The translations under genes and the position numbers were made by a program. From a virus, in the IMG/VR virus record IMGVR_UViG_3300025141_013870, positions 54,249 through 118,248 of that record: a stretch of DNA of 64,000 nucleotides. One strand, written 5' to 3'. Under the pieces are notes generated by a model that worked only from the letters and a program-made list of their open reading frames with translations, did not search any database and had not been told where the DNA came from. Below, piece by piece: positions 1,759-57,871 of the stretch. Position 1 is the stretch's first letter. Every line of letters starts with the position of its first letter.

Positions 1759-4218
1759 ATGAAAGTGTCTTTTAATAAAGCTCTGTCAGAAAGTATTGAA
1801 TATTTTGGTGGTGATGAACTTGCTGCTAATATTTTTGTAACAAAATACGCACTTTGTGATGAAGCTGGAAATTTTTATGAAAAGACGCCTGATGATATGC
1901 ATAAAAGACTTGCATCTGAGTTTCATAGAATTGAAAAAAATTATCCCAATCCGATGACAGAGGATGAAATATATCATCTTTTTAAAGATTTTAAATATGT
2001 TATTCCACAAGGAAGCCCGATGGCTGGAATTGGAAATAACTTTAGAATTCAGTCTTTGTCAAATTGTTTCGTCATAGAGTCTCCACATGACTCATATGGT
2101 GGAATTCTTAAGTCAGATCAAGAGCTAGTACAAATAGCAAAAAGAAGAGGAGGAGTAGGCTTTGACATTTCGACAATACGACCAAAAGGGTGCACGACAT
2201 CAAATGCTGCCAGAACTACTGACGGCATCGAAGTATTTATGGATAGATTTTCAAATTCGTGCAGAGAAGTGGCTCAGGGTGGACGCCGCGGAGCCCTTAT
2301 GCTTACTATCTCTATTCATCATCCTCAAGTTAGAGATTTTATAAGAATTAAAAGAGATCTTTCTCGAGTGACAGGTGCCAACATATCAGTAAGACTAACA
2401 GATGAATTTATGAATGCTGTAGAAAATAAATCTGAAGTTGAGCTAAGATTTCCAGTTGATAGTGAATTTCCTGAAATGTCAGAGTCTGTAGACGCATCCG
2501 AGCTTTGGGATGAGATAATAGAGTCAGCACATGAATCTGCTGAACCAGGAATTCTTTTTTGGGACACGGCGAAAAGATTAACACCTTCCGACATCTATGA
2601 AAAAGAAGGGTTTGGGTCAACATCTACAAATCCTTGCGGCGAGATAATTTTAAGCCCTGGAGATTCGTGTCGACTGATGCTAATAAATCTACTTTCATTT
2701 GTTGTCAATCCATTTAAAGATGATGCATTTTTTAATTTTAACAAGCTATCAGATATCACCACAAAGGCGCAGAGGCTCATGGATGATATGGTCGATCTTG
2801 AAATAGAACAGGTTGATAAGATACTTGAAAAAATATTTGCTGATCCCGAACCTGAAAAAGTAAAAAAGATAGAAAAAGATCTATGGAAAAACATCAAAGA
2901 GCAGGCAATTAGAGGCAGAAGAACAGGATTGGGAATAACAGCTGTAGGTGATACACTCGCAGCGCTTAATGTAAGATATGGTTCAGATGAGTCAATTGAT
3001 ATAATTGAAAACATATACAAGACTCTTTGTGTCAATGCATATAGATCATCATGTGTGATGGCAAAAGAGAGAGGGGCATTTCCAGTTCATGATTTTGCAA
3101 AAGAGACATATCATCCATTTTTAAGAAGAGTGTGGGAAGAAGATCCAGAACTCTTACAAATGAATGAAAAGTGGGGAAGAAGAAATATATCTCTTACAAC
3201 TACCGCACCTGCAGGATCTGTGTCTACATTAACGCAAACAACATCCGGAATAGAGCCTGCCTATCTTCTTAAGTACACTAGAAGGAAGAAGATAAACCAA
3301 TCTGATGAATCTGCATCTGTTGATTTTGTCGATGCTGTGGGAGATTCATGGCAAGAATATGATGTTTATCATCACGGATTCAAAAAGTGGATGGACATAA
3401 CAGGAAAAACATCAGTTAAAAAATCACCATATTGGAAATCTACATCAAATGATATTGACTGGGTCTCTAAAATAAAAGTTCAAGCTGCAGCACAGAAATG
3501 GGTATGCCATGCAATATCAAATACAACAAATGTTCCAGCAGACATAGACGTTGACACTGTTAAAAAAATCTATATTGATGGATGGAAGCTAGGTTGCAAA
3601 GGCGTAACAGTATATAGAGAAGGATGTAGATCGGGCGTTCTTGTTCCTACGGTTAGAGAAGATAAAAGTTTTGAATCTCATGATGCTCCATCTAGACCCG
3701 ATGAGCTAGATTGTTCTATTCACCACGCGACAATTAAAGACGAGGCATGGACAATTCTTGTAGGATTACTAGATGGAAGGCCATATGAGGTAATGGGAGG
3801 TCTCCAGAAGTATATTGAAATTCCGCGCAAGTACAAAGATGGAACAATTATCAAGCATCACTATAAGACAAAAAATTCTAGATATGATCTTCGTATTGGA
3901 AAAAACGGAGATGAAATTTTGATAAAGGATATTGTTTCAGTTTTTGATAATCCTAATCATGCTGGGTATACTAGGACGATATCCCTTGCACTTCGTCATG
4001 GAGCAAACATACATTATGTTGTTGAACAGCTGCAAAAAGACAGAGAGATGGACATGTTCTCATTCTCAAAGGTTATTGCTAGAGTTCTTAAGAATTACAT
4101 CAAGGATGGAACAGTACCAGGAAAGACGACATGTCAAAATTGTGGCGCTGAAGATACGCTGAGATATCAAGAAGGGTGTGTCATGTGCACAGCATGCGGA
4201 TCATCCAAGTGTGGATAA
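1759..4218 (+). CDS. nrdJ: Ribonucleotide reductase, class II (B12-dependent), with C-terminal Zn-ribbon
   Basis: SNCF, TNPCGEI, TTAPAGS, CKGVTVYREG; C-terminal CxxC..CxxC; no NrdB beside it. Confidence 0.85.
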   Translation: MKVSFNKALSESIEYFGGDELAANIFVTKYALCDEAGNFYEKTPDDMHKRLASEFHRIEKNYPNPMTEDEIYHLFKDFKYVIPQGSPMAGIGNNFRIQSLSNCFVIESPHDSYGGILKSDQELVQIAKRRGGVGFDISTIRPKGCTTSNAARTTDGIEVFMDRFSNSCREVAQGGRRGALMLTISIHHPQVRDFIRIKRDLSRVTGANISVRLTDEFMNAVENKSEVELRFPVDSEFPEMSESVDASELWDEIIESAHESAEPGILFWDTAKRLTPSDIYEKEGFGSTSTNPCGEIILSPGDSCRLMLINLLSFVVNPFKDDAFFNFNKLSDITTKAQRLMDDMVDLEIEQVDKILEKIFADPEPEKVKKIEKDLWKNIKEQAIRGRRTGLGITAVGDTLAALNVRYGSDESIDIIENIYKTLCVNAYRSSCVMAKERGAFPVHDFAKETYHPFLRRVWEEDPELLQMNEKWGRRNISLTTTAPAGSVSTLTQTTSGIEPAYLLKYTRRKKINQSDESASVDFVDAVGDSWQEYDVYHHGFKKWMDITGKTSVKKSPYWKSTSNDIDWVSKIKVQAAAQKWVCHAISNTTNVPADIDVDTVKKIYIDGWKLGCKGVTVYREGCRSGVLVPTVREDKSFESHDAPSRPDELDCSIHHATIKDEAWTILVGLLDGRPYEVMGGLQKYIEIPRKYKDGTIIKHHYKTKNSRYDLRIGKNGDEILIKDIVSVFDNPNHAGYTRTISLALRHGANIHYVVEQLQKDREMDMFSFSKVIARVLKNYIKDGTVPGKTTCQNCGAEDTLRYQEGCVMCTACGSSKCG

Positions 4219-4257
4219 ATTTTCAAAAAATAATACATAGTGCTAGGGGGAAAATTT

Positions 4258-4644
4258 ATGTCGTATTCAGATAAGGTATTAGATCATTTTAGCAACCCCC
4301 GTAATGTCGGAGCGATGGATAAAGATGATATCAATGTAGGCACAGGTATGGTCGGTGCTCCAGCGTGCGGCGATGTGATGAAGCTTCAGCTCAAGATCAA
4401 TGACAGCGGCATCATCGAGGATGCCAAGTTCAAGACATTCGGCTGCGGTTCTGCTGTTGCATCAAGCTCTTTAATAACAACATGGGTAAAAGGATTGAAT
4501 ATAGCAGAGGCTGAGAAGATAAAAAATTCATCAATTGCAGAGGAGCTTTGCTTGCCGCCTGTGAAGATTCACTGTTCAGTTCTTGCTGAAGATGCTATAA
4601 AGGCTGCGATTAAAGATTACCGGATCAAGAATGACAAGAAGTGA
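4258..4644 (+). CDS. iscU: Fe-S cluster scaffold IscU
   Basis: YSDKVLDHFSNPRNVG, GAPACGDVMKL, FGCGSA, LPPVKIHCSVLAEDA. Confidence 0.95.
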   Translation: MSYSDKVLDHFSNPRNVGAMDKDDINVGTGMVGAPACGDVMKLQLKINDSGIIEDAKFKTFGCGSAVASSSLITTWVKGLNIAEAEKIKNSSIAEELCLPPVKIHCSVLAEDAIKAAIKDYRIKNDKK

Positions 4645-4897
4645 TATACAAAAGCTCATTGATGAAGAAATCAACTCTGCCTTATCAATGCACGGAGGCC
4701 ATGTTTCAATTCATGAATTTGACGAAGAGAGCAAATCTTTGAAATTAAAAATGGGCGGTGGGTGTCATGGATGCTCATCATCAAGAATGACTATGAAAGT
4801 GGGAGTTGAAAATCTTCTCAGGGAGGTGTTTCCTGATATTGGAGAAATTGAGGATGTCACTGATCATTCAACAGGTGAAAATCCATACTATGACTAA
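4631..4897 (+). CDS. NifU-like (Nfu C-terminal domain) Fe-S carrier
   Basis: HGGHV..LKMGGGCHGCSSS (CxxC) motif; between iscU and iscA. Confidence 0.85.
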   Translation: MTRSDIQKLIDEEINSALSMHGGHVSIHEFDEESKSLKLKMGGGCHGCSSSRMTMKVGVENLLREVFPDIGEIEDVTDHSTGENPYYD

Positions 4898-4906
4898 GGA
4901 ACAAAT

Positions 4907-5233
4907 ATGGCAATAACAGTTACAGAGAAAGCAAGAATCAAAATAAAATCTCTGCTTAATCAGCGTCAAACTCCTGATCATTTTCTAAGGATAGGGTTAA
5001 GAGGAGGTGGCTGCTCTGGGTTTATGTATAAATATGAATTCATCGACAAGACAGATGAGAAAGATAAGATATTTGAATTTGATGACATTAAAATTTGCAT
5101 CGATATAAAATCCTATTTATTTCTTAATGGAATAGAGATAGATTATCAAGAAGACTTACTAAAGTCAGGCCTTGTGTTTAATGCTCCGGGAGCATCGCGA
5201 ACGTGTGGCTGTGGTGAGTCAGTAACATTTTGA
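4907..5233 (+). CDS. iscA: A-type Fe-S carrier IscA/HesB
   Basis: GGGCSG and C-terminal CGCGES motifs. Confidence 0.92.
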   Translation: MAITVTEKARIKIKSLLNQRQTPDHFLRIGLRGGGCSGFMYKYEFIDKTDEKDKIFEFDDIKICIDIKSYLFLNGIEIDYQEDLLKSGLVFNAPGASRTCGCGESVTF

Positions 5234-5240
5234 GGTATTG

Positions 5241-5843
5241 ATGAAGTGGATTACAAAAGTATCTCCATTAATTAAGGAAATTGAATTAAGAAAAAATCCA
5301 GTAGTCATACGTGTTAATAAGTTTGATGAAAAATCATCAAAAGAATTTGATAATCAAGTTGCTTTAGCGCATAATACTGGGCAAAAGGTTATTCCTATTG
5401 TCATTGACTCTTACGGCGGACAGGTTTATAGCTTGATGTCAATGATAAGTGCCATTAATCATTGTGAGATTCCAGTTGCTACAATAGTAGAAGGGAAGGC
5501 AATGTCATGTGGAGCTATACTTTTTTCATGCGGTGAGCAAGGCTTAAGGTTTATGGATCCTGATGCGACAGTCATGATTCATGATGTTTCATCTATGGAG
5601 TATGGAAAAGTTGAAGAGATAAAAGCGTCAGCTGAAGAAACAGAGAGGCTTAATCAAAAAGTCTATACAATTATGGCTAGAAACTGTGGAAAAAAAGACG
5701 ATTATTTTTTAAAGCTCGTTCATAAAAAAGGACACGCAGATTGGTTTTTAGATTCAACAGCTTGCAAAAAACACGGACTGGCTAATCAGATTCGTGTACC
5801 AAAGTTTAATATCAGCATTTCTGTTGATATAGATTTCGAATAA
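5241..5843 (+). CDS. clpP: ClpP-like serine protease
   Basis: IDSYGG, GKAMSCG (catalytic Ser), VMIHD (His). Confidence 0.85.
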   Translation: MKWITKVSPLIKEIELRKNPVVIRVNKFDEKSSKEFDNQVALAHNTGQKVIPIVIDSYGGQVYSLMSMISAINHCEIPVATIVEGKAMSCGAILFSCGEQGLRFMDPDATVMIHDVSSMEYGKVEEIKASAEETERLNQKVYTIMARNCGKKDDYFLKLVHKKGHADWFLDSTACKKHGLANQIRVPKFNISISVDIDFE

Positions 5844-5853
5844 GGTAATATAA

Positions 5854-7401
5854 ATGTTATTTCAAGATTTGAATATAGAAAAACAAGATACAGATATTTT
5901 AAGCGACGACGCTGTAAAATTTTTATCTGATCTAACAAGAATGTTTAGACAAAGTCTGATATCACTTCTTCAAAGAAGAAACCTGCGTCAGGCATTTTAT
6001 GATGAGAATCACTTTCCTAATTTTTTATCTGAGACAGTAGCTGTTAGACAGGGTGACTGGTCTGTTTGTGACATTCCAAATAGCATAAAAGATCGTCGAG
6101 TTGAGATAACGGGCCCTCCCGATAGAAAGATGATAATCAACGCTTTAAACTCTGGAGCAAAAGTGTATATGGCGGACTTTGAAGATTCAATGTCACCAAC
6201 ATGGGAAAATGTCGTCGATGGTCATGTAAACTTAATAGATGCAACAAGAAAGACCATAACATACGAACACCCAAAAAAAGGAATGTATGAACTTAATGAC
6301 GACGTAGCAGTGCTCTTTGTAAGGCCAAGGGGTCTTCACTTAAATGAATCTAATTTTATAGTTGACAATAAGCCGATTCCAGCATCATTATTTGATTTTG
6401 GATTATTTTTATTTTACAATGGGAAGCTTCTAGCTGATAAAGATGAAGGACCATATTTTTACATACCAAAATTAGAACACTATCTTGAAGCTAGATGGTG
6501 GAATGAGGTATTCACATGGTCACAAGAGGCTTTGGGCATACCGCATGGATCGATAAAGGCAACAGTTCTAATAGAGACTCTACCGGCAGCATTTCAGATG
6601 GATGAGATACTATATGAGCTAAGAGACCATTCAGCTGGCTTAAACTGCGGAAGGTGGGATTATATCTTTAGCTATATAAAGACATTGAGAAATCATGATA
6701 ACAGAATTCTACCAGATAGAAATACTGTCACGATGAATACACATTTTATGAACTCATATGCAAAATTGTTGGTAAAGACATGCCACAAGCGCGGTGCACA
6801 TGCTATGGGTGGAATGGCTGCACAAATTCCCATAAGAGGAGATCAGGAAAAGAATATTAAGGCATTGAACAAAGTCCGCGGAGATAAGATAAGAGAGGTT
6901 AATCTTGGACACGATGGAACGTGGGTCGCTCATCCAGGACTTGTAAAAATTGCAAAAGATGTATTTGATGAATATATGCCAGATGAAAACAATATTGAAA
7001 AGAAGATAGATTTTGTATGCTCAAGAGAAGACCTTCTTGATACACCCCAGGGTGAGATAACAGAGGAATGTTTAAGAAGCAATATCAATATCGGTATTCA
7101 CTATATAGCAGCGTGGCTATCTGGCCAGGGATGCGTTCCTCTTTATAATCTAATGGAGGATGCAGCAACTGCAGAGATATCTCGGGCTCAAACTTGGCAG
7201 TGGCTAAAACATGACAAGATTAGTATTGATAGATTTGAAGAAATTTTTATTGAAGAAATTAATAAAATAAGACATGAAGTTGGTGATTTAACATTTAAAA
7301 ATTCTAATTATGAAAGCGCTTCACAGCTATTCGAACGCTTATCTGTATCTGATGAGCTTGATAATTTTTTAACCTTAAAGGCCTATGAGCTAATATCCTA
7401 A
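5854..7401 (+). CDS. aceB: Malate synthase A
   Basis: [49 protein letters not shown]. Confidence 0.97.
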
Positions 7402-7412
7402 GGATCGTCTAT

Positions 7413-8651
7413 ATGACAACAGTCAAAAGAGATTTACCCCCCATTAAGAGAACCTGGAACCAGGAAGATGTCAACAACCTCAGGGGTAATGTTAAAATTG
7501 AATATTCACTAGCCAGGTCAGGAGCTAACAAGCTATGGAATCTACTTCTAGAAGATGATCCCGTTACTGCGCTAGGAGCGTTAACTGGAAACCAGGCAAT
7601 TCAACAAGTCAGAGGCGGCTTAAAGTCAATATATCTTAGCGGATGGCAGGTAGCAGCTGATGCAAATCTTTCTGGTAACATGTATCCAGATCAAAGCCTA
7701 TATCCGGCAAATAGCGTGCCATCAGTCGTGAAGAGAATAAATCAAGCTCTGCAAAGAACAGATCAGGTTGAGAGCGTTGAAGGGAATATAACTAGAGACT
7801 GGATGGTTCCCATAGTTGCAGATGCTGAAGCTGGATTCGGAGGGCCTCTAAACGCGCATGAGCTTATGAAAGGAATGATCGAAGCCGGCGCAGCAGGTGT
7901 ACACTTTGAGGATCAATTATCTTCAGAAAAGAAATGTGGGCACCTGGGCGGAAAGGTTCTAGTTCCAACATCACAGTTTGTAACAACGTTAAAGGCTGCT
8001 CGTCTAGCTGCTGATGTTATGGACGTACCGACCGTTTTAATTGCAAGAACAGATGCAAATAGCGCAAGATTAATGACATCTGACATAGATCCATATGATC
8101 ACCAGTTTATGACAGGAGAAAGAACGCAGGAAGGATTTTATCGAATCACAGGCGGAATCAATCAGGCAATATCCAGAGGGCTGGCATACGCACCATACGC
8201 AGACTTGCTTTGGTGTGAGACATCTACTCCTGATCTTCACGAAGCTAAACTGTTTGCAGATGCAATTCATGAGAAATTTCCAGGAAAGATTCTAGCATAC
8301 AATTGTTCACCATCGTTTAATTGGAAGAAAAATCTTGATGATGAGACAATAGAGATATTTCAAAGAGAGCTAAACGGTATGGGATATAAGTTTCAATTTG
8401 TAACTCTTGCTGGATTCCACTCACTTAACTACTCAATGTTTGATTTGGCTGATAGATATCGAGATGGCGGAATGACAGCGTACGTTCAGCTTCAGGAGAG
8501 AGAATTTTCAGCAGAGGAAAGAGGATACACGGCGACAAAGCACCAGAGAGAGGTAGGGACTGGATATTTTGATGCAGTTAAGAATGCTCTGTCTGGGGGA
8601 GACTCTTCAACTCTTGCTATGACTGAATCTACAGAGTCTGATCAGTTTTAA
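7413..8651 (+). CDS. aceA: Isocitrate lyase
   Basis: [18 protein letters not shown], catalytic [21 protein letters not shown]. Confidence 0.97.
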
Positions 8652-8653
8652 TT

Positions 8654-9586
8654 ATGGATAAGGACTTTTACAACAAGTCGAGCTCAGACAGCCTTGGGTG
8701 GAAACCTGAGTGGTTCGGGTGTAAATATTTCGATGAGGATCTTGTTAAAGCTGTAAGAAAGTGGCAGCGGGAGAACGGATTAACAGGCGACGGTCTTGTT
8801 GGTCCGATGACATATAGAAGAATATGGACAGAGAGAGAATCTCAAATTGATGAATTTAGACCCTATATCTATAGCCCCAAAGACAGTGCTTTCATAGTTC
8901 ATAATGGAAAATTTATTCCTATAGACTGGGGAAAGGTGATTCTATGGTCTGATACGGGTGGTCTCAAAGCTGCACCAGGAGCCTACTATAGCTATGGGGG
9001 ATCAGAAGATAGAAATCCAACAATGTTTGTAAACCACTGGGATGTCTGTCTATCAGCTGAGAGCTGTGCGAAGGTTCTTGCTAGAAGGGGCGTCTCAGTT
9101 CATTTCTGCATAGACAATGATGGAACGATCTATCAACTTCTTGATACACAGCATGCAGCGTGGCATGCTGGAAATTCAAAGGTAAACAGAGCTAGTGTAG
9201 GTGTGGAAATCTCAAATGCATATTACACAAAATATCAGGACTGGTATGAGAGACACGGGTTTGGAGAGCGACCACTATGGACAGACGCAGAGGTCCACGG
9301 AAAGACGCAGAAACCATTTTTAGGATTCTATGACGTTCAAATAGAGGCAGCTAAAGCTCTATGGAGAGCTATTCATGACGGGCTAGGCATTCCGCTAGAG
9401 TGCCCAGTAGATTCTTCTGGAGATATGGTTACAACAACAGTGAGCGAAGTGGCTTCTGGTAAGTTTAAAGGATTTATTCATCACTTTCATGTAACAAGAG
9501 GAAAGATCGACTGCGCAGGATTCGATCTAAAGAATCCTCTTGATGAAGTTAGAACAAGTAGAAAATATTGTATTGATAAGGAATAG
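8654..9586 (+). CDS. N-acetylmuramoyl-L-alanine amidase with N-terminal peptidoglycan-binding domain (endolysin-like)
   Basis: AVRKWQRENGLTGDGLVGPMT PG-binding motif; Amidase_2 motifs VNHW, SVHFCID, AWHAG, SVGVEI. Confidence 0.85.
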   Translation: MDKDFYNKSSSDSLGWKPEWFGCKYFDEDLVKAVRKWQRENGLTGDGLVGPMTYRRIWTERESQIDEFRPYIYSPKDSAFIVHNGKFIPIDWGKVILWSDTGGLKAAPGAYYSYGGSEDRNPTMFVNHWDVCLSAESCAKVLARRGVSVHFCIDNDGTIYQLLDTQHAAWHAGNSKVNRASVGVEISNAYYTKYQDWYERHGFGERPLWTDAEVHGKTQKPFLGFYDVQIEAAKALWRAIHDGLGIPLECPVDSSGDMVTTTVSEVASGKFKGFIHHFHVTRGKIDCAGFDLKNPLDEVRTSRKYCIDKE

Positions 9587-10636
9587 ATGAAAATGAGACA
9601 TATGAAGATAGAATATGTGTGGATCGATGGTTGCAACCCATGGGGATTAAGATCAAAGGTGAAGGTTTTAAAATTGTCAGATGCCAACTTTAATGACACA
9701 ATAGAAGGGAGCATTGATAACATTCCTGAGTGGGGGTTTGATGGATCGTCAACTGAGCAGGCGTCTGGCGGCGACTCTGATTGTCTTCTACGGCCTGTCA
9801 GGTGTGTCGTAGACTCAATAAGAAACGACTACACCTCAGCAATAGTCTTATGTGACGTTCTTATGGGAGATGGATTTCCCCACCCAACAAACAATAGGTC
9901 GTCACTACTAGAGACATCAAGGCTGTGTGAAAGTCACAAGCCTTTCTTTGGTATCGAGCAGGAGTATACAATAATGAAAGATGAGAGGCCTCTCGGATTT
10001 CCTCCGTCTGGATACCCGGCTCCCCAAGGAAAGTATTATTGCTCAGCGGGCGGAGATAGATCATATGGAAGGAACATATCAGATGAGCATCTAGATGCGT
10101 GCATAGCATCTGGTCTCAATATTACAGGAACAAATGCCGAGGTCATGCCAGGACAGTGGGAATATCAGATAGGGGGACCAGGCGTAGGGCCCGTGGAAGC
10201 GAGTGACGAGCTCTGGATATCTAGATGGATTCTATTAAAGGTAGCAGAGAGAAATGGAATGACTGTCACGTTTGAGCCAAAGCCCATGCTTGGTGACTGG
10301 AATGGCGCAGGATGTCACACAAATTTTAGCACAGAGAAGATGAGAGAGGAAGGCGGCATGAGACACATTGAGCAGGCATGCAAGAAGATGTCAAATAACA
10401 TCCAGCCTCATCTTGACGCGTATGGTGACGGCATAGAGTTTAGACTGACAGGAATGCACGAGACCTGCTCATATAGTGAGTTTAAGTGGGGCGTGGCTGA
10501 TAGAACAGCGTCAATAAGAATACCAAGGGGTGTATCAAATGATGGTCGAGGATATCTCGAGGATAGAAGACCCAATGCCAATTGTGATCCATATCAGGTC
10601 TGTAAGGTGATATTAGAATCGACGTGTATAGATTAA
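9587..10636 (+). CDS. glnII: Glutamine synthetase type II
   Basis: EYVWIDG, FDGSST, GQWEYQIG, GDWNGAGCH, RLTGMHET, GYLEDRRP. Confidence 0.93.
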   Translation: MKMRHMKIEYVWIDGCNPWGLRSKVKVLKLSDANFNDTIEGSIDNIPEWGFDGSSTEQASGGDSDCLLRPVRCVVDSIRNDYTSAIVLCDVLMGDGFPHPTNNRSSLLETSRLCESHKPFFGIEQEYTIMKDERPLGFPPSGYPAPQGKYYCSAGGDRSYGRNISDEHLDACIASGLNITGTNAEVMPGQWEYQIGGPGVGPVEASDELWISRWILLKVAERNGMTVTFEPKPMLGDWNGAGCHTNFSTEKMREEGGMRHIEQACKKMSNNIQPHLDAYGDGIEFRLTGMHETCSYSEFKWGVADRTASIRIPRGVSNDGRGYLEDRRPNANCDPYQVCKVILESTCID

Positions 10637-10681: not shown

Positions 10682-10909
10682 ATGAAAACGTATATCACCT
10701 CTGATCTGCCCGTAGCAGCTTTTCTCATGATGAGAGGCCTGGCATTAGTCCGCGCTGATAGGCAGTCTGGTAGGTTTGTATTCGAGCTAGAGGATCCTGA
10801 CGGAAAGGCTGCAAAGTTTGCAATAGAGTATCTAAACAGCGACTTTTGTAAGTTTGATAACTACATAAGAAATTTAAAAAGTGTGCTGTATCAGAATAAA
10901 AAACCTTGA
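10682..10909 (+). CDS. Small hypothetical protein (DUF5659-like)
   Basis: TSDLPVAAFL..RFVFELED pattern. Confidence 0.5.
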   Translation: MKTYITSDLPVAAFLMMRGLALVRADRQSGRFVFELEDPDGKAAKFAIEYLNSDFCKFDNYIRNLKSVLYQNKKP

Positions 10910-11084: not shown

Positions 11085-13529
11085 ATGGCTATAAAATCAC
11101 AAATTAGAGTACAGCAGGTAACAGGATCTATTATAGATATTGCATACTCTGGCTCACAAACATCGGCTACAAGCCTCACATCCGTCGATGATGGGGATCT
11201 TGGTAGTCTTTTAGGTCAGTTTGCTGGCGCAATCGGTAGAATATCCGGTTACAACGGTTCGGCGGCGACTGGGTTCACAAACGCAGCAGCCGGTACATTT
11301 GCTCAGGATATTATTCCGGAAGCAGACGGAACACGTGACTTAGGTTCCTCTACGAGAGAATGGGCAGAGGTTCACGCTAATGCGATTAACTCTGCTGCTA
11401 CACTTGTCATCAGCGGCACTACTGGTCTTACACTTGATGCAACAACAGTGTCAATCGATGGTATTGACGATTCTAACATCACTGTAACAGCATCTGGAAA
11501 GGACTTAAATATCGGCGTTGCTGGCGGCGGAGCTCAAGTACTCAAGCTAGATTCAGCTGGTACAGGTACTGACGCTATTGACGTTAATGCTTCTGCTGGC
11601 GGAATTGACATCGACGCATCCGGTGCAATCAGTTTAGACTCTTCAGCTGGATCAATCGACATCAATGTAGTGGACGGCCAGACGGTGAGCGTCGGCCTAA
11701 ACGGGGCAGTCGAGACAATATGGACGCCACATGCCACTGCAGGTAACGAGAAGTGGTCAACGACCAACACTGCTGGTACCGCGACTGATGCAATTGCGCT
11801 CACTGCGACTGCTGGCGGTGTTACAGTTGATGGCGGAGGTGGTGTCAATATTGTTGGTAACACTGCTGAGGTTGATATTACGACGACAGGTGCACTTGAC
11901 CTAAATTCAGGCGCTTTTACCTTGAATGGATCTACTGTTGGAATTGATGGTACAAGTGTCTTGACTCTGGGTGCAGCTTCAATGAATATTGATTCTGATG
12001 GTGGAGCAATTGATATGGATGCATCAACCACAGTTACCATTGGTGGCTCCAACGCAACCGGCGTTACAATCGGTCGAGCAGATAAGAACGTTACAATTCC
12101 TGGAAACCTGATAGTTAACGGTACTGCAACTTACATTAATACAAGCGAGTTGATGGTAGAAGATAAGCAGGTGGTCATCGGTATTCCTGGTGGCATGACA
12201 GACCCCGGAACTGCTACATACGCTCTAACTTCAGATGTTGTCACGGTAACAAGCGAAGCCCACGGGTTGACGAACGGACAGTATGTTCTCATATCTGATC
12301 CAGCCGCAACGCCACTTATCCCTGAGGGAGTCTATCTGATTACCTCTGTTGCTGATGCTGATACATTCACATTTGCATATGTCAGGGCTAATGTTCCCGC
12401 TGGTACTGCTATCGATCACTCAGTGAACGATGTAACAGACGCTACTGCTAGTGGATCTGGAATAATGCTTGCACCTGCATCAGCTGTACCGACCTTGCTT
12501 AAGTGGGATTCGACGACTGGTTGGCTCTTAGGCGGACCTGCTTCGTCAACTGCTGGCCTTTCACCAAATGTCGACGGCTCAGGAGCTCTTGGTGCTCCAG
12601 CTAAACGATGGGCAGATCTCTTCCTCGCGGAAGGTGGTGTTATCAACTGGGATAATGGTGATATGACCATGACTCAGGCTAGCGATGTTCTTACTGTTGC
12701 TGGCGGCGATATCCTTATGGATACCACTCAGAAGATTACTTTTGGTAACGCTAATAACGCTATCAATCTTAATACTGATCTCGTCATTGATGCTGCTGCT
12801 GACATCACTCTTGATGCCGCTGGTGGAAATGTTAAACCTGCTTCGAATGATCAGGCTGCTCTCGGTGTTAGTGGAACGGGTTGGTCAGACCTATTCCTTG
12901 CTGATGGTGCTGTGATTGACGTTAATGCTGGTAACTCCACTCTCACGGGTGGAAGTGCTGCTTGGGTTTCAAACGTTAAGTTCCAGGCTACAAGACTACA
13001 AGTTGATGGTGCTAATGACTATCTTGATGTCAACACTGATTTCACTATGACTGCTGCTGCAGATATTCGCCTTGCGGCGGGTGGTGCAGATGTTCAGCTT
13101 CGAGGCAGTGGAACCAATGACTTCATCTCCTTACAGAGAGCTAGTACAACAATTCAATACATGAACTTTGCAGCTGATGATTCTTCTGCAGCTCCTGGTG
13201 TTGCTGCAGCCGGTTTCGGTTTCCGCAACAATGCTGGGACCATGCAGTTCAAGAATAGCGCTGGATCATGGCAGAACATCGCTGCTGGAACAGGTGAAGC
13301 TCGTGTTAAGGATGTCGTAACAGTTGCAGCGACAGCGACAGCAGTTACATCCACATCTAGTGGATTCCTAGCATTGGCTCCAAATGATCTTGATGTCTAC
13401 CTAAACGGACAGCTGATGGCATCTGGATCTGGAGGTACTGGTAATGACTATAACGTCACAGCAACAAGTGTGGTTACATTCACATTTAATGTTGAGCCAG
13501 ATGACACCGTAACGTTTGTCAAGCCCTAA
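11085..13529 (+). CDS. Virion structural / tail-fibre-like protein
   Basis: 814 aa G/A/T/D-rich; three P..D....LG....W repeats; strong SD AAGGAG; own terminator. Confidence 0.7.
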   Translation: MAIKSQIRVQQVTGSIIDIAYSGSQTSATSLTSVDDGDLGSLLGQFAGAIGRISGYNGSAATGFTNAAAGTFAQDIIPEADGTRDLGSSTREWAEVHANAINSAATLVISGTTGLTLDATTVSIDGIDDSNITVTASGKDLNIGVAGGGAQVLKLDSAGTGTDAIDVNASAGGIDIDASGAISLDSSAGSIDINVVDGQTVSVGLNGAVETIWTPHATAGNEKWSTTNTAGTATDAIALTATAGGVTVDGGGGVNIVGNTAEVDITTTGALDLNSGAFTLNGSTVGIDGTSVLTLGAASMNIDSDGGAIDMDASTTVTIGGSNATGVTIGRADKNVTIPGNLIVNGTATYINTSELMVEDKQVVIGIPGGMTDPGTATYALTSDVVTVTSEAHGLTNGQYVLISDPAATPLIPEGVYLITSVADADTFTFAYVRANVPAGTAIDHSVNDVTDATASGSGIMLAPASAVPTLLKWDSTTGWLLGGPASSTAGLSPNVDGSGALGAPAKRWADLFLAEGGVINWDNGDMTMTQASDVLTVAGGDILMDTTQKITFGNANNAINLNTDLVIDAAADITLDAAGGNVKPASNDQAALGVSGTGWSDLFLADGAVIDVNAGNSTLTGGSAAWVSNVKFQATRLQVDGANDYLDVNTDFTMTAAADIRLAAGGADVQLRGSGTNDFISLQRASTTIQYMNFAADDSSAAPGVAAAGFGFRNNAGTMQFKNSAGSWQNIAAGTGEARVKDVVTVAATATAVTSTSSGFLALAPNDLDVYLNGQLMASGSGGTGNDYNVTATSVVTFTFNVEPDDTVTFVKP

Positions 13530-13566: not shown

Positions 13567-13607
13567 GGCGGGGTCCTTTTTATAAGGACCCCGCCTTTTT
13601 ATTTTTT
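13567..13607 (+). terminator. Rho-independent terminator
   Basis: Perfect 12-bp stem GGCGGGGTCCTT/AAGGACCCCGCC, 5-nt loop, followed by TTTTTATTTTTT. Confidence 0.9.
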
Positions 13608-22802: not shown

Positions 22803-23243
22803 ATGAAGGCATATATAGCAAGTTCGTGGTTTAATCCTGTAGCTAATCAGGAGGTAAACGATATTATTAGCTCTCTAGCAGAAAATAATTTTGAATTTTT
22901 TTCACCTAGAGATTTTTTTGTGTGTCCACCAGGCGCTGACCTAGAGACTCAAAAATCAACATATGAAGGAAATCTTGAACATCTTCACAATTGTGATTTC
23001 ATGATATGTAATACGCACGGAAAAGACATGGGATCAATTTTTGAGGCAGGATACTTTAAGGCACTAGATAAGCCTATTGTTTACTTTTGTGCAGGGTTGC
23101 CAGAGGGAGCATCATTTAATCTTATGCTAGCTCAAAGCGGTGTGACTGTGTGCACGTCAAAAGATCAACTAAGTGACTATCTATCTAGGTGTAGTGATCA
23201 AGAGCAGCTTCTTTTTGAGCCATATTACGGCAGTATTGAATGA
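22803..23243 (+). CDS. Nucleoside 2-deoxyribosyltransferase / dNMP N-glycosidase family
   Basis: YIASSWF, FSPRD, DMGSIFEAGY..ALDKPIV. Confidence 0.8.
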   Translation: MKAYIASSWFNPVANQEVNDIISSLAENNFEFFSPRDFFVCPPGADLETQKSTYEGNLEHLHNCDFMICNTHGKDMGSIFEAGYFKALDKPIVYFCAGLPEGASFNLMLAQSGVTVCTSKDQLSDYLSRCSDQEQLLFEPYYGSIE

Positions 23244-23713
23244 TATTTGCTTTTTTGCAAATTATCTCTACATGGATTTATGGCCACGTACTAGAGTACT
23301 CAATTCATAGATGGCTTTTGCATAAGCTTGGAACTAAAAAAGGTAGAATTTTTTCATTTCACTTCTATGGTCATCATAGCTTTGCAAGACTAAATGAATT
23401 TTTTGATAAATCATATTCTGGTTTTCCACTTAGGTGGGATCCCGCTGGAAAAGAATTGCTATCACTTTTATTCTTGATGGCAATTCATATTCCTGTTATG
23501 ATTTATTTACCATGGTCTGCACCCGTTATAGTATTTTCACTAGCACAATATTATTATGTTCACAGGAAATCTCATAACAACCCACATTGGGCAAGATCTA
23601 GTCTTATATGGCATTATGAACATCACATGGGATTAAATCAAAATAAAAACTATGGAGTCAGAACAGATATTATAGATAGGATTGTTGGAACTAGAGTAAG
23701 GTACTATAGATAA
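23240..23713 (+). CDS. Fatty acid hydroxylase / sterol desaturase family membrane protein
   Basis: His boxes HRWLLH, HFYGHH, HRKSH, HYEHH. Confidence 0.8.
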   Translation: MIFAFLQIISTWIYGHVLEYSIHRWLLHKLGTKKGRIFSFHFYGHHSFARLNEFFDKSYSGFPLRWDPAGKELLSLLFLMAIHIPVMIYLPWSAPVIVFSLAQYYYVHRKSHNNPHWARSSLIWHYEHHMGLNQNKNYGVRTDIIDRIVGTRVRYYR

Positions 23714-24818: not shown

Positions 24819-27800
24819 ATGTCAGAGAAAAAGAATTTTATACTTCCTAAGAGATTTGTCGGCTTACACGCTCACAGCGGAACTGGATCTCCGTATGACG
24901 GTCTGGGATATCCAGATCAGCATATAGATTTTGTTCTATCTAATGATATGGATGCATGGGCATTAACTGATCACGGAAACGGAAATGGTCTTGCACATGC
25001 TCATGCGTATGCCAAGAAGTTAAAAAACAAGGGACAAAAATATAAACAGCTGTATGGTGTAGAATTTTATTTTGTTCCTTCTCTTTTTGACTGGAGAATA
25101 CAATATGAGAATCATAGAGAGGAAGTTCGTCAAGCTAGAACAGAAAAAAAGTCAAAAGAGAGAACAGATATCGATTCTGAAGACGAGGTGTCAGGCGGAC
25201 TTATTATAGAAAACGAAGAAGAGACAAAAGGTGATTTTGATAAAAATGTGTGGAAAAGACGATATCATCTCGTTGTCTTAGCTAAAAACAGCCAGGGTCT
25301 AGAGAATTTATTTACTCTTGTAAAAAGATCATACACAGATGGTTTTTATAGATTTCCAAGAATTGATTTTGATCTTCTTAATAAGTATGGTGATGGCCTT
25401 ATAGTAAGCACAGCATGCATTGGCGGATACCCATCATCGTTAATAGCAAGAGGTGAATCACATGGAAAGTCAAGCAAAGATATCATTCTTGATTTAGAAA
25501 ACATGTCTGATAGATTTATTGACGCAGTAGGAAGAGAAAATTTTAATCTCGAGATTCAATTCAATTCATTGTCTATGCAACATAAGACAAACAAATATCT
25601 TATAAAGCTTCATGAAAAAACAGGAATTCCTCTAGTTGCAACTGCTGATAGTCACTACTATAGCAGAAACATGTGGGAAGCAAGAGAGCTTTACAGAAAG
25701 CTTGGCAGAATGGGAGCTAGAGGAGATTCAATGCCTACACTTCCTTCTTTTGAAGATCTTAAATGTGAGCTTTATCCTAAGAATGCTAACCAGATGTGGG
25801 ATGAATTTAACGTTCACCTTCCTGAATATGAGTTTTATAAAGGAAAAGAACAGATTATTTCCGATGCAATTGAGAGAACATATGACATTGCATGGGAACA
25901 ATGTGAAGAAATATGGTTTGACGAAGATGCAAAATTACCAAATTTTGACTTGCCTGACAATCCTGCTATTACTCAGCTAGTATTTAGAGTCAAAAAAGCA
26001 CTTATTGATGAAGGTCTTCACGAAAAGAAAGAGTATGTAGAAAGAGCAACGATGGAGCTGAGCGACATCAAGCACCTTGGTTTTGAAAATTATTTTCTCA
26101 CAATGACAAAGGTTTTTGATCTAGCTTCAAAGAAAACTATTATTGGACCAGGAAGAGGTTCTGGAGCAGGATCTCTTGTAAATTATCTCTTAGGAATCAC
26201 TACGACAGATCCCATCAAGTATGGTCTTCTATGGGAGAGGTTTTTGCATAGAGCAAAAGCAGGATGGCCAGATATTGATACAGACGCTGGTGATAGAGAT
26301 GTCTTGATAAATGCGTCTAGAGAATTATTTGGAGATGAATCAGTTGTACCTGTTTCAAATTTTAATACTTTAAAATTAAAATCTCTAATAAAAGATGTTT
26401 CAAAATTTTATGGCATTGATTTTGGTGAGGTCAATGCAATGACAAATAAGCTTGAAAAAGAAGTCATGCATAAGGCAATGGGAGACCATGAAGAAAAATC
26501 GACTTATGTTCTAACTCATGAAGACTGTTTGAAATATTCTGATAACTATGTTGACTTCATGTCAAAATATCCAAAGGTATCCGAACAGGTTCAAAAGCTT
26601 TTTATGGAATCAAGATCTATTGGAAGACATGCAGGCGGAGTCCTGATATGCCCAAATCTAGAAAAATATATGCCACTTATTAAGGTAAGAGGAGAGCTCC
26701 AGACGCCATGGTCAGAAGGCATGAACTTTAGGCACTTAGAGCCTAATGGCTTTCTTAAGTTTGATTTTCTAGGTCTAACAACTTTAAAAATGGTTGAAGA
26801 TTGTATTCGACTTGTCTTGAGAAAACAGGGAAACACATCACCTTCATTTGATGACATTAGTAAATTTTTTGATGATAATATAAACTGTAGATATAATGAC
26901 TTAACTGATGATAAAGTTTGGGAACATGTTTATCACAAGGGAAGATTTGTACAGGTGTTTCAATTTACGCAGCAGGGCGCAAGAAATTTTTGCAGAAGAG
27001 CAAAGCCAAGAACCATAGAAGAGCTAGCAACAATTACGGCAATATATAGGCCGGGCCCGCTGGCAGCAAATGTTGATAAGAAATATGTCAAGACGAAAAG
27101 GGAGGCAGAAAATGGAAGCCCTATTCGCTATGATCATCCAGTGATTGAAGAGATACTGAGTGAAACATATGGTTTTATATCATTCCAAGAGCAATTCATG
27201 CTCTTAGCACAGAGGCTATCAGGATTTGACAAGGGGGAATCAGACAAGATGAGAAAGACACTTGTCAAGAAGTCTCTTGATTCAAATGCAGCAAAGGTGC
27301 AGGAAAGAATTGACTTAAGAAAGAAGTTTGTTGATGGAGCAGTTGAGCTATCTGGAATGAAAAGAGATATAGCAGAGACTCTTTACGAGACAATTGAGTA
27401 TTTTTCTGGATATGGATTTAATAAATCACATGCGATTTCGTATGCGATCGATTCGTATTATTCTGCGTGGCTGCATACTCATTATGAAAAAGAATGGCTA
27501 GCCACATGTCTTCAGACTCAAAACGGAACAAATAAGTTTGGAAAGGTTATCAATGAGATCAAGTCTTTGGGATACAAAATACTTCCTCCTGACATTAATA
27601 TTTCTTCTGATGTCTGGGTGTATAGTGATGAAAGAAACGGTTTTGTTCCGCCTTTAACTGCGATCAAAGGTGTTGGATCAGCTGCAGTTGAAGAGATCAT
27701 TGATCGCAGACCGTTTTCTAATATAGATGAAATGCTTTTTACAGAGGACGGAAAATGGAAGCCTTCTAAGATGAATAAAACATGCTTTGATTCATTGTGC

Positions 27801-28385
27801 AAGGTAGAAGCTTTTGGATCACTTGATGAGATGAAAAATAGAGCAATTAAGAATCATAGACAGCTATATGAAACAATTGTTGGAAATTATGATCTTTTAA
27901 AAAAAGGTCGATACGGAATAACAAAAACTGCGTATAAAAAGACTATTAAAGAAAGAGGTGATATTCCAAGATTTATAGATGAAAAAACAATAGAGAATTA
28001 TGATCTTCAAGATTGGACTCGTGAATCTAAAATATTATTTAGTGTTGACTTGATGGCAGGAGCAGATGAAACTCTTATCTTTCCTCCAAAGATAATGGAG
28101 AAGATTGAAAATGCCAATGTGAGACCTGCCTCTAGCCTGATGGGAAAGGAGAAAGATATAGTCTGGTTCTGTATTCAAACACTAGAGGAGAGAACAACGA
28201 AAAATGGAAAAATTTTCTACAGGATGAAAGTTATAGATAATAACTTCGAAAGTACGTGGATTCGTGTTTGGGGTGCATTTAGAGATATTCCAGATCTTTA
28301 CACCATGTGGATCGCTGAGGTTGCATCTACAGATTCATGGGGCTGTTCTACATCGTCATATAAAATGAAAAGGATTGATGTATAG
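24819..28385 (+). CDS. dnaE: DNA polymerase III alpha subunit (PHP domain with intact metal ligands)
   Basis: LHAHS, TDHG, GRGSGAGSL, PDIDTD, GRHAGG, KFDFLGL, GFNKSHA. Confidence 0.95.
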   Translation: MSEKKNFILPKRFVGLHAHSGTGSPYDGLGYPDQHIDFVLSNDMDAWALTDHGNGNGLAHAHAYAKKLKNKGQKYKQLYGVEFYFVPSLFDWRIQYENHREEVRQARTEKKSKERTDIDSEDEVSGGLIIENEEETKGDFDKNVWKRRYHLVVLAKNSQGLENLFTLVKRSYTDGFYRFPRIDFDLLNKYGDGLIVSTACIGGYPSSLIARGESHGKSSKDIILDLENMSDRFIDAVGRENFNLEIQFNSLSMQHKTNKYLIKLHEKTGIPLVATADSHYYSRNMWEARELYRKLGRMGARGDSMPTLPSFEDLKCELYPKNANQMWDEFNVHLPEYEFYKGKEQIISDAIERTYDIAWEQCEEIWFDEDAKLPNFDLPDNPAITQLVFRVKKALIDEGLHEKKEYVERATMELSDIKHLGFENYFLTMTKVFDLASKKTIIGPGRGSGAGSLVNYLLGITTTDPIKYGLLWERFLHRAKAGWPDIDTDAGDRDVLINASRELFGDESVVPVSNFNTLKLKSLIKDVSKFYGIDFGEVNAMTNKLEKEVMHKAMGDHEEKSTYVLTHEDCLKYSDNYVDFMSKYPKVSEQVQKLFMESRSIGRHAGGVLICPNLEKYMPLIKVRGELQTPWSEGMNFRHLEPNGFLKFDFLGLTTLKMVEDCIRLVLRKQGNTSPSFDDISKFFDDNINCRYNDLTDDKVWEHVYHKGRFVQVFQFTQQGARNFCRRAKPRTIEELATITAIYRPGPLAANVDKKYVKTKREAENGSPIRYDHPVIEEILSETYGFISFQEQFMLLAQRLSGFDKGESDKMRKTLVKKSLDSNAAKVQERIDLRKKFVDGAVELSGMKRDIAETLYETIEYFSGYGFNKSHAISYAIDSYYSAWLHTHYEKEWLATCLQTQNGTNKFGKVINEIKSLGYKILPPDINISSDVWVYSDERNGFVPPLTAIKGVGSAAVEEIIDRRPFSNIDEMLFTEDGKWKPSKMNKTCFDSLCKVEAFGSLDEMKNRAIKNHRQLYETIVGNYDLLKKGRYGITKTAYKKTIKERGDIPRFIDEKTIENYDLQDWTRESKILFSVDLMAGADETLIFPPKIMEKIENANVRPASSLMGKEKDIVWFCIQTLEERTTKNGKIFYRMKVIDNNFESTWIRVWGAFRDIPDLYTMWIAEVASTDSWGCSTSSYKMKRIDV

Positions 28386-33697: not shown

Positions 33698-33970
33698 ATG
33701 AAGACCTTTTCCTCAAAAGATATCTTAGAGATCGTAAAAAAAATACATAATCAAAATGAAAATATTGATGTATTTGCAGGAAAAGGATCAGATAGAAAAA
33801 TAATAGTTAAAAAGGGCCTGAAGATACGTCACAAGCCATCAGGCCTAGTTTATACTGTTTTAAAGGTAATAATTCCAGATGGTAGCTCTGAACCTAAAAT
33901 TTTATGCAGAAGGCCTGGAAAGGAATTACTTATTACGAGAAATGAGTTTAAAGACTACGAGAGGCACTAA
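33698..33970 (+). CDS. Hypothetical protein
   Basis: SD GAGGTG; 90 aa. Confidence 0.75.
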   Translation: MKTFSSKDILEIVKKIHNQNENIDVFAGKGSDRKIIVKKGLKIRHKPSGLVYTVLKVIIPDGSSEPKILCRRPGKELLITRNEFKDYERH

Positions 33971-56272: not shown

Positions 56273-57871
56273 ATGTGCGGCTTTTTAACTTACTTTGGTT
56301 ATGACTATGATCTTTTTCAATTGGAAGAGTCGTCTAAGAAAATAAGCTATAGAGGTCCTGATACATCATCATACAAGACAATATCGCCTAATGTTGTGAT
56401 GACATTTCACCGGCTTGCCATAATGGACACATCATCTTTAGGTGATCAGCCTTTGTTTCACCCTGAGGATGCTAGCCTATCCTTGGTGTGCAATGGTGAG
56501 ATCTATAATTATAAAACTTTAATAGATGAGCTTGGGTTTCAAATGAAATCTAATTCTGATTGTGAAGTCATTTTGCATCTTTATAAAAAATACGGTATAG
56601 AAAAAACAGTTGAGATGCTTGATGGAGTTTTTGCATTTACACTATACGATGGAAAAAAGAATATCTTATTTGCATCTAGAGATTCATTTGGTGTGAGGCC
56701 TTCGTTTATAGGATGGGATAACCGCGGTGGCGTTGCGATTGCTAGCGAGATAAAAGCTTTAGTTGATATTTGTGATAAGAGTATAATTCCCTTCCCGCCA
56801 GGATCATGGTGGGCTTCTGACGTTCCTTATGCATTTACAGGGTTTAATGTACATTTTGATAATAAATTTCAAAAGGGCGATGAAAAAGAATTTTGTAAAA
56901 ATATAAAAAATCTTCTAACTAATTCTGTTAAAAAGAGAATGATGTCTGATAGGGAGGTAGGATGCTTGTTATCTGGTGGACTAGATTCCAGCCTGATATC
57001 AGCATTAGTTGCCTCGATGACAGACGACAGAAAAAAATTAAAAACATTTTCAATTGGCATGGAAGGAAGTCCAGACTTAGATCATGCAAAAATAGTTGCA
57101 GATCACATAGGATCTGATCATCACTCAATTCAATTATCTCAACAGGAATTTCTTGATGCTATAGATGTTGTTATTTATAACATCGAATCATATGATACAA
57201 CGACAGTTAGAGCATCAGTGGGAAATTATCTAGTTTCAAAATACATTAGAGAGAACACAGATGTTAAAGTTGTATTTAATGGTGACGGAGCAGATGAGGT
57301 ATGTATGGGATATGTTTATAATAAGCATGCTCCCTCTGTAGATGATTTTTACAATGAGAACATTAAGCTAATTGATGAAATTTATATGTTTGATGTATTA
57401 CGATCAGATAGATGCGTGAGCTCTAATGGACTTGAAGCCCGCACACCATTTCTTGATAAAAAATTTGTAGAATATTATATGTCAATTCCGCCTGAGATGA
57501 AGATGTTCGGTAGCAACAAAAGACCTGAAAAATATCTTTTACGCAAGGCATTTGAAAAATCTAATCTTCTTCCTGATGAAGTTTTGTGGCGTCGCAAGTG
57601 TGCTTTTTCAGATGGTGTGAGCAGTATTGAAAATTCATGGCACAAAACGTTGCAAAAGTTTATAAATTCTCAGGTCACAGATAAAGAGTTTGAGAGAGAA
57701 AGGGCAAAGATCGAGCACTGTTCTCCTATTTTAAAAGAAAGTTACTATTATAGGAAGGTTTTTAAGACGTTTTTTGGAGATAATTCTCATATTATTCCTC
57801 ACTTTTGGATGCCAAATTGGTCAGATACAGTTGATCCTTCTGCTAGAGAGTTATCTGGATATAAAGAATAG
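56273..57871 (+). CDS. asnB: Asparagine synthase (glutamine-hydrolysing)
   Basis: N-terminal MCG, RGPD, CNGEIYN, LSGGLDSS, GDGADE, LEARTPFLD. Confidence 0.93.
   Translation: MCGFLTYFGYDYDLFQLEESSKKISYRGPDTSSYKTISPNVVMTFHRLAIMDTSSLGDQPLFHPEDASLSLVCNGEIYNYKTLIDELGFQMKSNSDCEVILHLYKKYGIEKTVEMLDGVFAFTLYDGKKNILFASRDSFGVRPSFIGWDNRGGVAIASEIKALVDICDKSIIPFPPGSWWASDVPYAFTGFNVHFDNKFQKGDEKEFCKNIKNLLTNSVKKRMMSDREVGCLLSGGLDSSLISALVASMTDDRKKLKTFSIGMEGSPDLDHAKIVADHIGSDHHSIQLSQQEFLDAIDVVIYNIESYDTTTVRASVGNYLVSKYIRENTDVKVVFNGDGADEVCMGYVYNKHAPSVDDFYNENIKLIDEIYMFDVLRSDRCVSSNGLEARTPFLDKKFVEYYMSIPPEMKMFGSNKRPEKYLLRKAFEKSNLLPDEVLWRRKCAFSDGVSSIENSWHKTLQKFINSQVTDKEFERERAKIEHCSPILKESYYYRKVFKTFFGDNSHIIPHFWMPNWSDTVDPSARELSGYKE

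Follow-up and report, generated by a model that had tools for sequence, protein, structure and literature searches.

Isocitrate lyase (ICL, the product of aceA) and malate synthase (MS, the product of aceB) together turn isocitrate and acetyl-CoA into succinate and malate without loss of CO2. Both genes stand side by side in the DNA analyzed here, a window of 64,000 nucleotides that covers bases 54249-118248 of the 118,248-base IMG/VR virus record IMGVR_UViG_3300025141_013870; CheckV puts the completeness of this record at 37%, implying a full genome of roughly 300 kb. In its two enzymes and in its gene order the pair resembles the aceBAK operon of Escherichia coli and the aceBA type of Bacillus. 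Unlike these bacterial systems, it has no aceK and no regulator in the available record, its ICL has a shorter N terminus, its enzymes fall into phage-specific clades, and it is placed among phage replication genes.

Shunt genes have been reported from viruses before. In the Pacific Ocean Virome, Hurwitz et al. 2013 (PMC4053976) detected aceA as well as aceB; theirs was the first virus-associated report of the shunt and advanced the same hypothesis of carbon and energy re-routing that is considered here. An aceBA operon is known from a complete environmental viral genome of 179 kb, TARA_ERS478052_N000008 (Nishimura et al. 2017, PMC5332604). The Huge Phage Genome Collection (bioRxiv 10.1101/2025.02.27.640493) holds 98 ICL and 22 MS genes, adjacent in 20 genomes; its MS-bearing phages come from marine, soil, and plant-related habitats, and 247 huge phages are listed with a glutamine synthetase in the same preprint. 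Expression of both shunt genes has also been described for giant viruses of eukaryotes (PMC9270025). The original prediction for this locus, which a model made from the letters alone, had implied that the pair was new; with ocean viromes, a T4-like marine viral genome, and 20-22 huge phages already on record, that implication falls, and the finding is a well-supported further example of a published pair, not a discovery. The same prediction knew of no good characterization of the pair in a tailed phage, and this agrees with the literature, where our searches turned up no phage copy that had been tested biochemically or physiologically.

The Pacific Ocean Virome offered read- and gene-level data without genomic context, whereas here a 118-kb contig carries phage hallmark genes. 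TARA_ERS478052_N000008, compared by description, is similar in its adjacent aceB-aceA order, its origin in a large marine virus, its T4-like structural genes, and its lack of a known host; it is smaller, however, and was discussed together with lipopolysaccharide and capsule genes and a possible lysogenic phase, whereas in the phage described here the pair lies in a block of DnaB, ribonucleotide reductase (RNR), ClpP, and amidase genes with iron–sulfur (Fe-S) genes and GlnII, in a lineage of ~300 kb. The huge-phage preprint identified its genes by structure clustering only and contains no phylogeny, synteny, or selection analysis. What the present locus adds to these reports is the placement of the enzymes in phage clades of their own, strong purifying selection, and a variable cargo slot in a very large DnaB-RNR-ClpP lineage, along with repeated gain and loss and a lack of both the rest of the cycle and AceK, which points to dependence on the host. 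Its practical value is that of a clean example with a clear genomic context.

Two shunt enzymes with intact active sites

The adjacent, full-length MS and ICL genes with intact motifs that had been described from the letters are present as such: aceB (5854..7401) and aceA (7413..8651) are open reading frames (ORFs) on the + strand, 11 nt apart, and both products score above the NCBIfam curated equivalog cut-offs by which whole-protein identity was judged. The aceB product, a malate synthase A, has 515 aa, which fits isoform A (about 530 aa), and contains the Pfam domains MS_N, MS_TIM-barrel, and MS_C (E 9e-110); against TIGR01344 (malate_syn_A) it scores 730.2 bits, with a cut-off of 594.5. 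It aligns end to end with the solved structures of the isoform A enzymes (MSA) of Bacillus anthracis and E. coli, the top match being PDB 3cux (E 2.7e-185); residues 14-514 align to 3cux and residues 10-514 to 3cuz. We take D447, R166, E250, and D278 to be the MSA equivalents of the catalytic and metal-binding residues of isoform G (MSG), a numbering that was cross-checked by alignment. In the phage enzyme R157, E241, D269, and D436 are present, align with the corresponding catalytic positions of 3cuz, and are invariant in the viral copies (55/55). The roles of the catalytic Asp base, the enolate-stabilizing Arg, and the two Mg2+ ligands have been described for E. coli MSG (D631, R338; PMC3112382).

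The 412-aa aceA product carries the Pfam ICL domain (E 1e-100) and reaches 732 bits against NF011645 (isocitrate lyase; cut-off 562) and 565 bits against TIGR01346 (cut-off 276). Against the methylisocitrate lyase model prpB (TIGR02317), it reaches 103 bits only, with a cut-off of 354. Its top solved structures, 6lrp and 7cmx, align end to end (E about 1e-190, up to 1e-191), and 1f61 also aligned; its identity is ~64% with the Salmonella gene and 60-73% with the sampled bacterial genes, and its N terminus is ~12-23 residues shorter than in the solved bacterial enzymes. The active-site loop reads KRCGH in methylisocitrate lyases and KKCGH in enzymes of the ICL type. In the phage protein, KKCGH with the catalytic Cys occupies residues 173-177 and is invariant in 49 of 49 viral copies. 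The residues that bind Mg2+ and substrate, D137, E139, H164, E166, R212, N297, S299, S301, and T331, are likewise present and invariant in viral copies; they presumably correspond to D153, E155, H180, E182, R228, N313, S315, S317, and T347 of Mycobacterium tuberculosis ICL1. Judged from their sequences, both phage enzymes are very probably active and under selection.

The original prediction spoke of a complete glyoxylate shunt. This is true of the two shunt-specific enzymes, but the host has to provide all remaining steps. This record (37% complete) and four large pair-bearing records, one of which is 99% complete, yielded no aconitase, citrate synthase, or AceK. A search for AceK, the isocitrate dehydrogenase kinase/phosphatase, with PF06315 likewise gave no match in any of these records, a result that at 37% completeness does not prove absence from the whole genome, and the AceK control of the branch point that distinguishes a regulated bypass of the aceBAK type was not found. 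With no AceK-type switch, the partition of flux would depend on the amounts of the enzymes.

The same data bear on the possibility that the two enzymes are used separately, with ICL supplying glyoxylate (for glycine and purines, for example) or succinate, or acting on 2-methylisocitrate, and MS mainly removing toxic glyoxylate. Such a use would fit the excess of ICL over MS genes in huge phages (98 vs 22), the occurrence of ICL alone in the GenBank Phage C48C1, and the differing sub-clades of MS and ICL described below, which indicate partly separate histories. We nevertheless consider it improbable, because the loop is of the ICL type and the prpB score lies far below its cut-off, because no glyoxylate aminotransferase was seen in the window, and because the genes are adjacent and co-directional both here and in about 50 IMG/VR contigs, at distances of 11-120 nt, as expected of a functional pair.

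Phage origin and evolution of the pair

Genes for the large terminase, the portal, the major head protein, and two tail-sheath paralogues lie on the same record and the same strand as aceB-aceA, which bears out the viral context that had been proposed for the contig. Upstream on this strand there are also genes for a head-tail adaptor, an SbcC-like nuclease, a UvsX-like recombinase, and an exonuclease, and the + strand carries 94 of the 96 ORFs of at least 100 aa. The window further encodes a PolIII-alpha-type DNA polymerase, GroEL, DnaJ, ThyX, thymidine kinase, and other nucleotide genes. By terminase and capsid, the nearest isolates are Flavobacterium phage immuto, Microcystis phage Mel-JY01, Rhodothermus phage RM378, and the huge phage LR756508; their identity of only 38-50% places the phage on a remote branch of the T4-like structural superfamily. 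One relative, complete and with direct terminal repeats, measures 293 kb. The viral origin of the locus is secure, and we consider it probable, jointly with the carbon-conserving role discussed below, that the carrier is an uncultured marine jumbo myovirus in which aceB-aceA is a genuine auxiliary metabolic gene pair.

The replicative polymerase of this phage is of the PolIII-alpha type (window 24819-28385; phrog_405, E 2e-221), while G000:C1:48618-49844 separately encodes a small PolA-like protein; no T4-type family B polymerase was found, despite the T4-like head, portal, terminase, and sheath genes. The absence of tRNA genes from the window leaves no host clue from that source, and the cellular MS homologues (52-59% identity) are scattered over many phyla and provide no host pointer. 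Myxococcota typically have a high GC content; the phage GC of 36-38% argues against typical high-GC Myxococcota as hosts.

Composition and synteny both indicate that the locus is not chimeric, a concern that had been raised alongside the original prediction: its codon usage fits the contig, and its gene order recurs across assemblies. The z-scores of GC content at third codon positions (GC3), relative to the genes of the contig, are -0.34 for MS and +0.47 for ICL, and the relative synonymous codon usage of MS and ICL correlates with that of the rest of the genome at 0.95; adjacent gene pairs give a background of 0.91 +/- 0.07. When IMG/VR was scanned with an MS alignment, 65 loci were returned, and nearly all of the phage contigs among them have ICL beside MS. 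More than 25 independent contigs, from many samples, share the order DnaB-RNR-(IscU/NifU/IscA)-ClpP-(amidase)-MS-ICL-(amidase)-(GlnII). The nearest two, L008 and L009, come from two other samples and have the exact gene order of the window, with identities of 95% for DnaB, 89% for RNR, 76% for MS, and 85% for ICL; the closest metagenome proteins (P0002-P0004) are 76-82% identical.

For the phylogeny, cellular MS sequences were sampled at one genome per GTDB species, the best 80 of at least 598 relatives were used, and the root of the tree was not inferred. Cellular MS identity to the MS of the window tops out at 59%. In a FastTree phylogeny of 133 MS sequences, a branch with support 100 separates off 46 viral sequences, among them that of the window; IQ-TREE, applied to 84 MS sequences, separates off 35 viral sequences, again including the window and again with support 100. 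The ICL tree sets 34 phage sequences apart with support 99; the sister of this phage clade, with weak support (87), consists of two Acidobacteriota, Archangium gephyra, and a proteobacterial metagenome-assembled genome. Most phage MS and ICL copies thus form clades of their own, apart from the sampled bacterial sequences (support 99-100). The two trees differ in sub-clade membership, which suggests exchange among phages; L006, L025, L007, and L024, for example, cluster with the window in MS and not in ICL.

The ratio of nonsynonymous to synonymous substitution rates (dN/dS) is 0.04-0.11 in phage pairs with unsaturated dS; dS is saturated between the ICL genes of the window and L008 and in several other pairs, and the values were taken from closer pairs. 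The phage copies are under strong purifying selection. From the trees and codon statistics, the pair appears to be an old, phage-adapted accessory cassette that moves among related phages, with no sign of recent host capture.

Against this background we weighed the explanation that cellular DNA has been mis-assembled or mis-binned as viral, or that the genes are decaying passengers. Some "viral" MS contigs of IMG/VR do nest in cellular clades (L028 beside Brevibacillus; L030, L031, L034, L035, L051, and L052 near Archangium and Acidobacteriota), and these are either separate captures or misclassified DNA; in addition, the only other full-length pair matches in GenBank phages are misfiled Salmonella contigs, the rest being unannotated single-gene records of 1.5-4.5 kb that carry a phage label. 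For the window, however, the structural genes on the same contig, the matching codon usage, the gene order kept in many assemblies, the phage-specific clades, dN/dS values far below 1, and the invariant catalytic residues largely refute such an artefact, to which we assign hardly any probability.

The GenBank phages yielded no acceptable instance of the pair, since the candidates proved to be misfiled Salmonella contigs, short unannotated fragments, and one phage, C48C1, with ICL only. The misfiled entries are two 501-kb Salmonella enterica whole-genome-shotgun contigs (AFYI01000007.1 and AGRM01000005.1) that are filed among the phages and give false aceB/aceA phage matches. Phage C48C1 (GenBank OQ984149.1, Kyanoviridae; L005 8001-9233) is a complete genome of 156 kb with a full-length ICL, 57% identical to that of the window and annotated "hypothetical protein"; no malate synthase match was found in it. 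The neighborhood of this ICL resembles that of the window (DnaB, NifU-like, endolysin), and the protein, on a long branch, falls outside the main clade of phage ICLs.

Contigs of giant viruses (GVMAG) presented two further arrangements. In L060-L069 and L072 a single ORF of ~1100 aa, matching at ~8001-10600 of each locus, combines an MS (42-47% identity) with a distant ICL (27-31%), so that the two enzymes appear to be fused. The unfused GVMAG MS genes of L054-L056 nest inside the phage MS clade beside L050 and L059, an unexpected position for viruses of eukaryotes that mis-binning may explain.

The replication block and its cargo slot

The flanks of the pair are as originally described, with a ClpP-like protease before aceB and an Amidase_2/PG_binding_1 protein after aceA, and all genes of the surrounding block lie on the + strand. 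The block includes a DnaB-like helicase (349-1737; Pfam DnaB_C) and a class II-type RNR (1759-4218; Pfam Ribonuc_red_lgC and TSCPD), which are a conserved replication backbone that takes inserted cargo. Between these and the pair lie an Fe-S assembly trio (4240..5233) and the ClpP-like serine protease (5238..5843; Pfam CLP_protease, E 2.7e-27, below all NCBIfam ClpP cut-offs). The trio consists of IscU, which is above its equivalog cut-off (TIGR01999, 221 vs 192), a NifU C-terminal domain protein (Pfam NifU), and, as its third gene, an IscA/SufA-type carrier (TIGR00049, 110 vs 58.8). Downstream of aceA are an endolysin-type N-acetylmuramoyl-L-alanine amidase with a peptidoglycan-binding domain (8654..9586; Pfam Amidase_2 and PG_binding_1) and a GlnII-type glutamine synthetase-like gene (9587..10636; Pfam Gln-synt_C and Gln-synt_N), whose 435 bits against NF041605 do not reach the cut-off of 500. 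In contrast to aceB and aceA, IscU is an outlier in GC3 (z 2.68) and may have been acquired later; the GlnII-like gene is an outlier as well (z 2.35).

The genes are tightly packed, the gaps from ClpP through aceB, aceA, and the amidase to GlnII being 10, 11, 2, and 0 nt. A Shine-Dalgarno-like AAGG motif overlaps the ClpP stop codon 9 nt before the aceB ATG, and an AAGGA motif overlaps the aceB stop codon 8 nt before the aceA ATG. Such ribosome-binding motifs, overlapping the preceding stop codons in a packed, co-directional block, make joint transcription and translation of aceB and aceA with the DnaB/RNR block most likely. No terminator-like site was found from DnaB to GlnII, the sole strong one lying at 13567-13595. 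Sigma-70-like promoter sites were not enriched (41 found vs 42.5 expected), nor was the T4 late motif TATAAATA (6 found vs 6.2 expected), and no timing of expression was deduced from either.

The DnaB-type backbone is very common in IMG/VR, where at least 583 stretches encode relatives, and it usually lacks the pair: aceB-aceA is absent from 22 of 24 further backbone loci that extend at least 7 kb downstream of DnaB, the other two being contigs already found, and five large backbone records, the complete 293-kb genome included, are without either gene. On the DnaB tree, at least eight gains or losses of the pair are needed, four of which are forced by well-supported branches. The position of the cassette also varies, after ClpP, after the amidase, or before or after GlnII. 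The ClpP-like gene is a backbone gene, kept in contigs with and without the cassette, and so is the amidase, which follows the cassette here but precedes it in other contigs; the presence of the Fe-S trio varies across contigs. This variability in cassette position and presence suggests that the region from RNR to the amidase behaves as a cargo slot, which also takes Fe-S genes and GlnII.

The other cargo is found more often where the pair is present. Among backbone loci, 10 of the 16 that carry the pair have GlnII, compared with 1 of the 19 that do not (Fisher p 0.0006); for Fe-S genes the numbers are 11 of 16 and 4 of 19 (Fisher p 0.007), although in both comparisons kinship is not separable, with four independent contrasts. 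Elsewhere in the window there are a full-length AsnB-type glutamine-dependent asparagine synthase (56273..57871, + strand; Pfam Asn_synthase, E 1e-74, and GATase_7) and a 236-aa protein with an Fe/Mn superoxide dismutase (SOD) C-terminal domain (33970-34680; E 7e-18), in which the N-terminal SOD domain was not detected. One tentative reading of this company, to which we give a minor share of probability, is that in this deep-branching lineage of marine jumbo phages aceBA belongs to a coordinated, mobile cargo that supports a starved host (Fe-S assembly, GlnII, AsnB, and the SOD-like gene) and is exchanged via one slot next to RNR and ClpP; iron and redox sparing and the supply of aspartate and glutamine would then be its main functions, and carbon saving secondary. 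If this were true, phage-to-phage exchange, and not host capture, would spread central-carbon pathways in the ocean virosphere.

Proposed role in the host and other observations

We propose that phage ICL would split host-made isocitrate into succinate and glyoxylate and that phage MS would condense the glyoxylate with acetyl-CoA to malate. The tricarboxylic acid cycle's two steps that release CO2 and produce NAD(P)H would be bypassed, and two acetyl units would yield one C4 acid. In a carbon-starved host, acetyl-CoA from lipids, storage polymers, or acetate could in this way reach oxaloacetate and aspartate for nucleotide and amino-acid synthesis, with the host supplying citrate synthase, aconitase, succinate dehydrogenase, fumarase, and malate dehydrogenase. 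The redirection of lipid- or acetate-derived carbon into biomass and deoxynucleotide precursors, as first suggested for this locus, is a reasonable reading, and iron and redox sparing fits about equally well. The role that we favor, and regard as likely when taken together with the reading of the pair as a genuine auxiliary metabolic gene pair, is that C4 acids, and hence aspartate, are kept available from acetyl-CoA while the phage drains precursors. The RNR, GlnII-like, and AsnB-type genes in the same window fit such a supply of C4 acids and aspartate; AsnB, a further amino-acid auxiliary metabolic gene, is a possible consumer of aspartate derived from the shunt and of glutamine derived from GlnII.

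Several points weigh against this interpretation. It depends on the host whether the pair adds a missing pathway or only sustains an existing one. The 98 ICL and 22 MS genes of huge phages imply that the benefit need not require a full phage-encoded shunt. Co-transcription with the replication genes is deduced from gene spacing, the promoter and terminator scans being uninformative, and the separation of viral from cellular clades comes from the limited cellular sample in an unrooted tree. Finally, the Fe-S genes and the SOD-like gene fit a role in iron or oxidative stress at least as well as one in carbon conservation.

This last point leads to an alternative in which the shunt, mainly by avoiding the NAD(P)H-producing steps, would lower electron flow through the iron-rich complex I, and with it the formation of reactive oxygen species, and so keep an iron-limited or oxidatively stressed host productive, carbon saving being secondary. 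The cassette adjoins IscU, the NifU-domain protein, and the IscA-type carrier, the SOD C-terminal domain protein is encoded in the same window, and Fe-S genes are more frequent in backbone loci that carry the pair (11/16 vs 4/19). In marine heterotrophs, moreover, iron limitation raises shunt expression, for which a bypass of complex I has been proposed as the reason (PMC11069385). On the other hand, the association with Fe-S genes loses its significance when kinship is taken into account (four independent contrasts), the Fe-S genes may serve other Fe-S enzymes of the phage or host, and RNR, GlnII, and AsnB are equally close. We regard iron and redox sparing as the primary function as possible but rather unlikely; the carbon and iron/redox roles are not mutually exclusive.

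If the phage shunt enzymes are active, infected cells in the carbon- or iron-poor ocean would release less of their carbon as CO2, and a larger share would go into phage progeny, which would bear on estimates of viral effects on marine carbon flux. 

Three other features of the window stand apart from the pair. The 449-nt gap after GlnII contains a 75-aa DUF5659 ORF at 10682-10909. Beyond it, an 814-aa ORF (11085-13529; GC 0.48) lies upstream of the strong terminator-like hairpin at 13567-13595; it gave no Pfam, PHROG, or NCBIfam match and has a homologue of 40% identity in L209. Near DnaJ and ThyX, the window encodes a fatty-acid-hydroxylase-family protein and a nucleoside 2-deoxyribosyltransferase (23240-23713 and 22803-23243).

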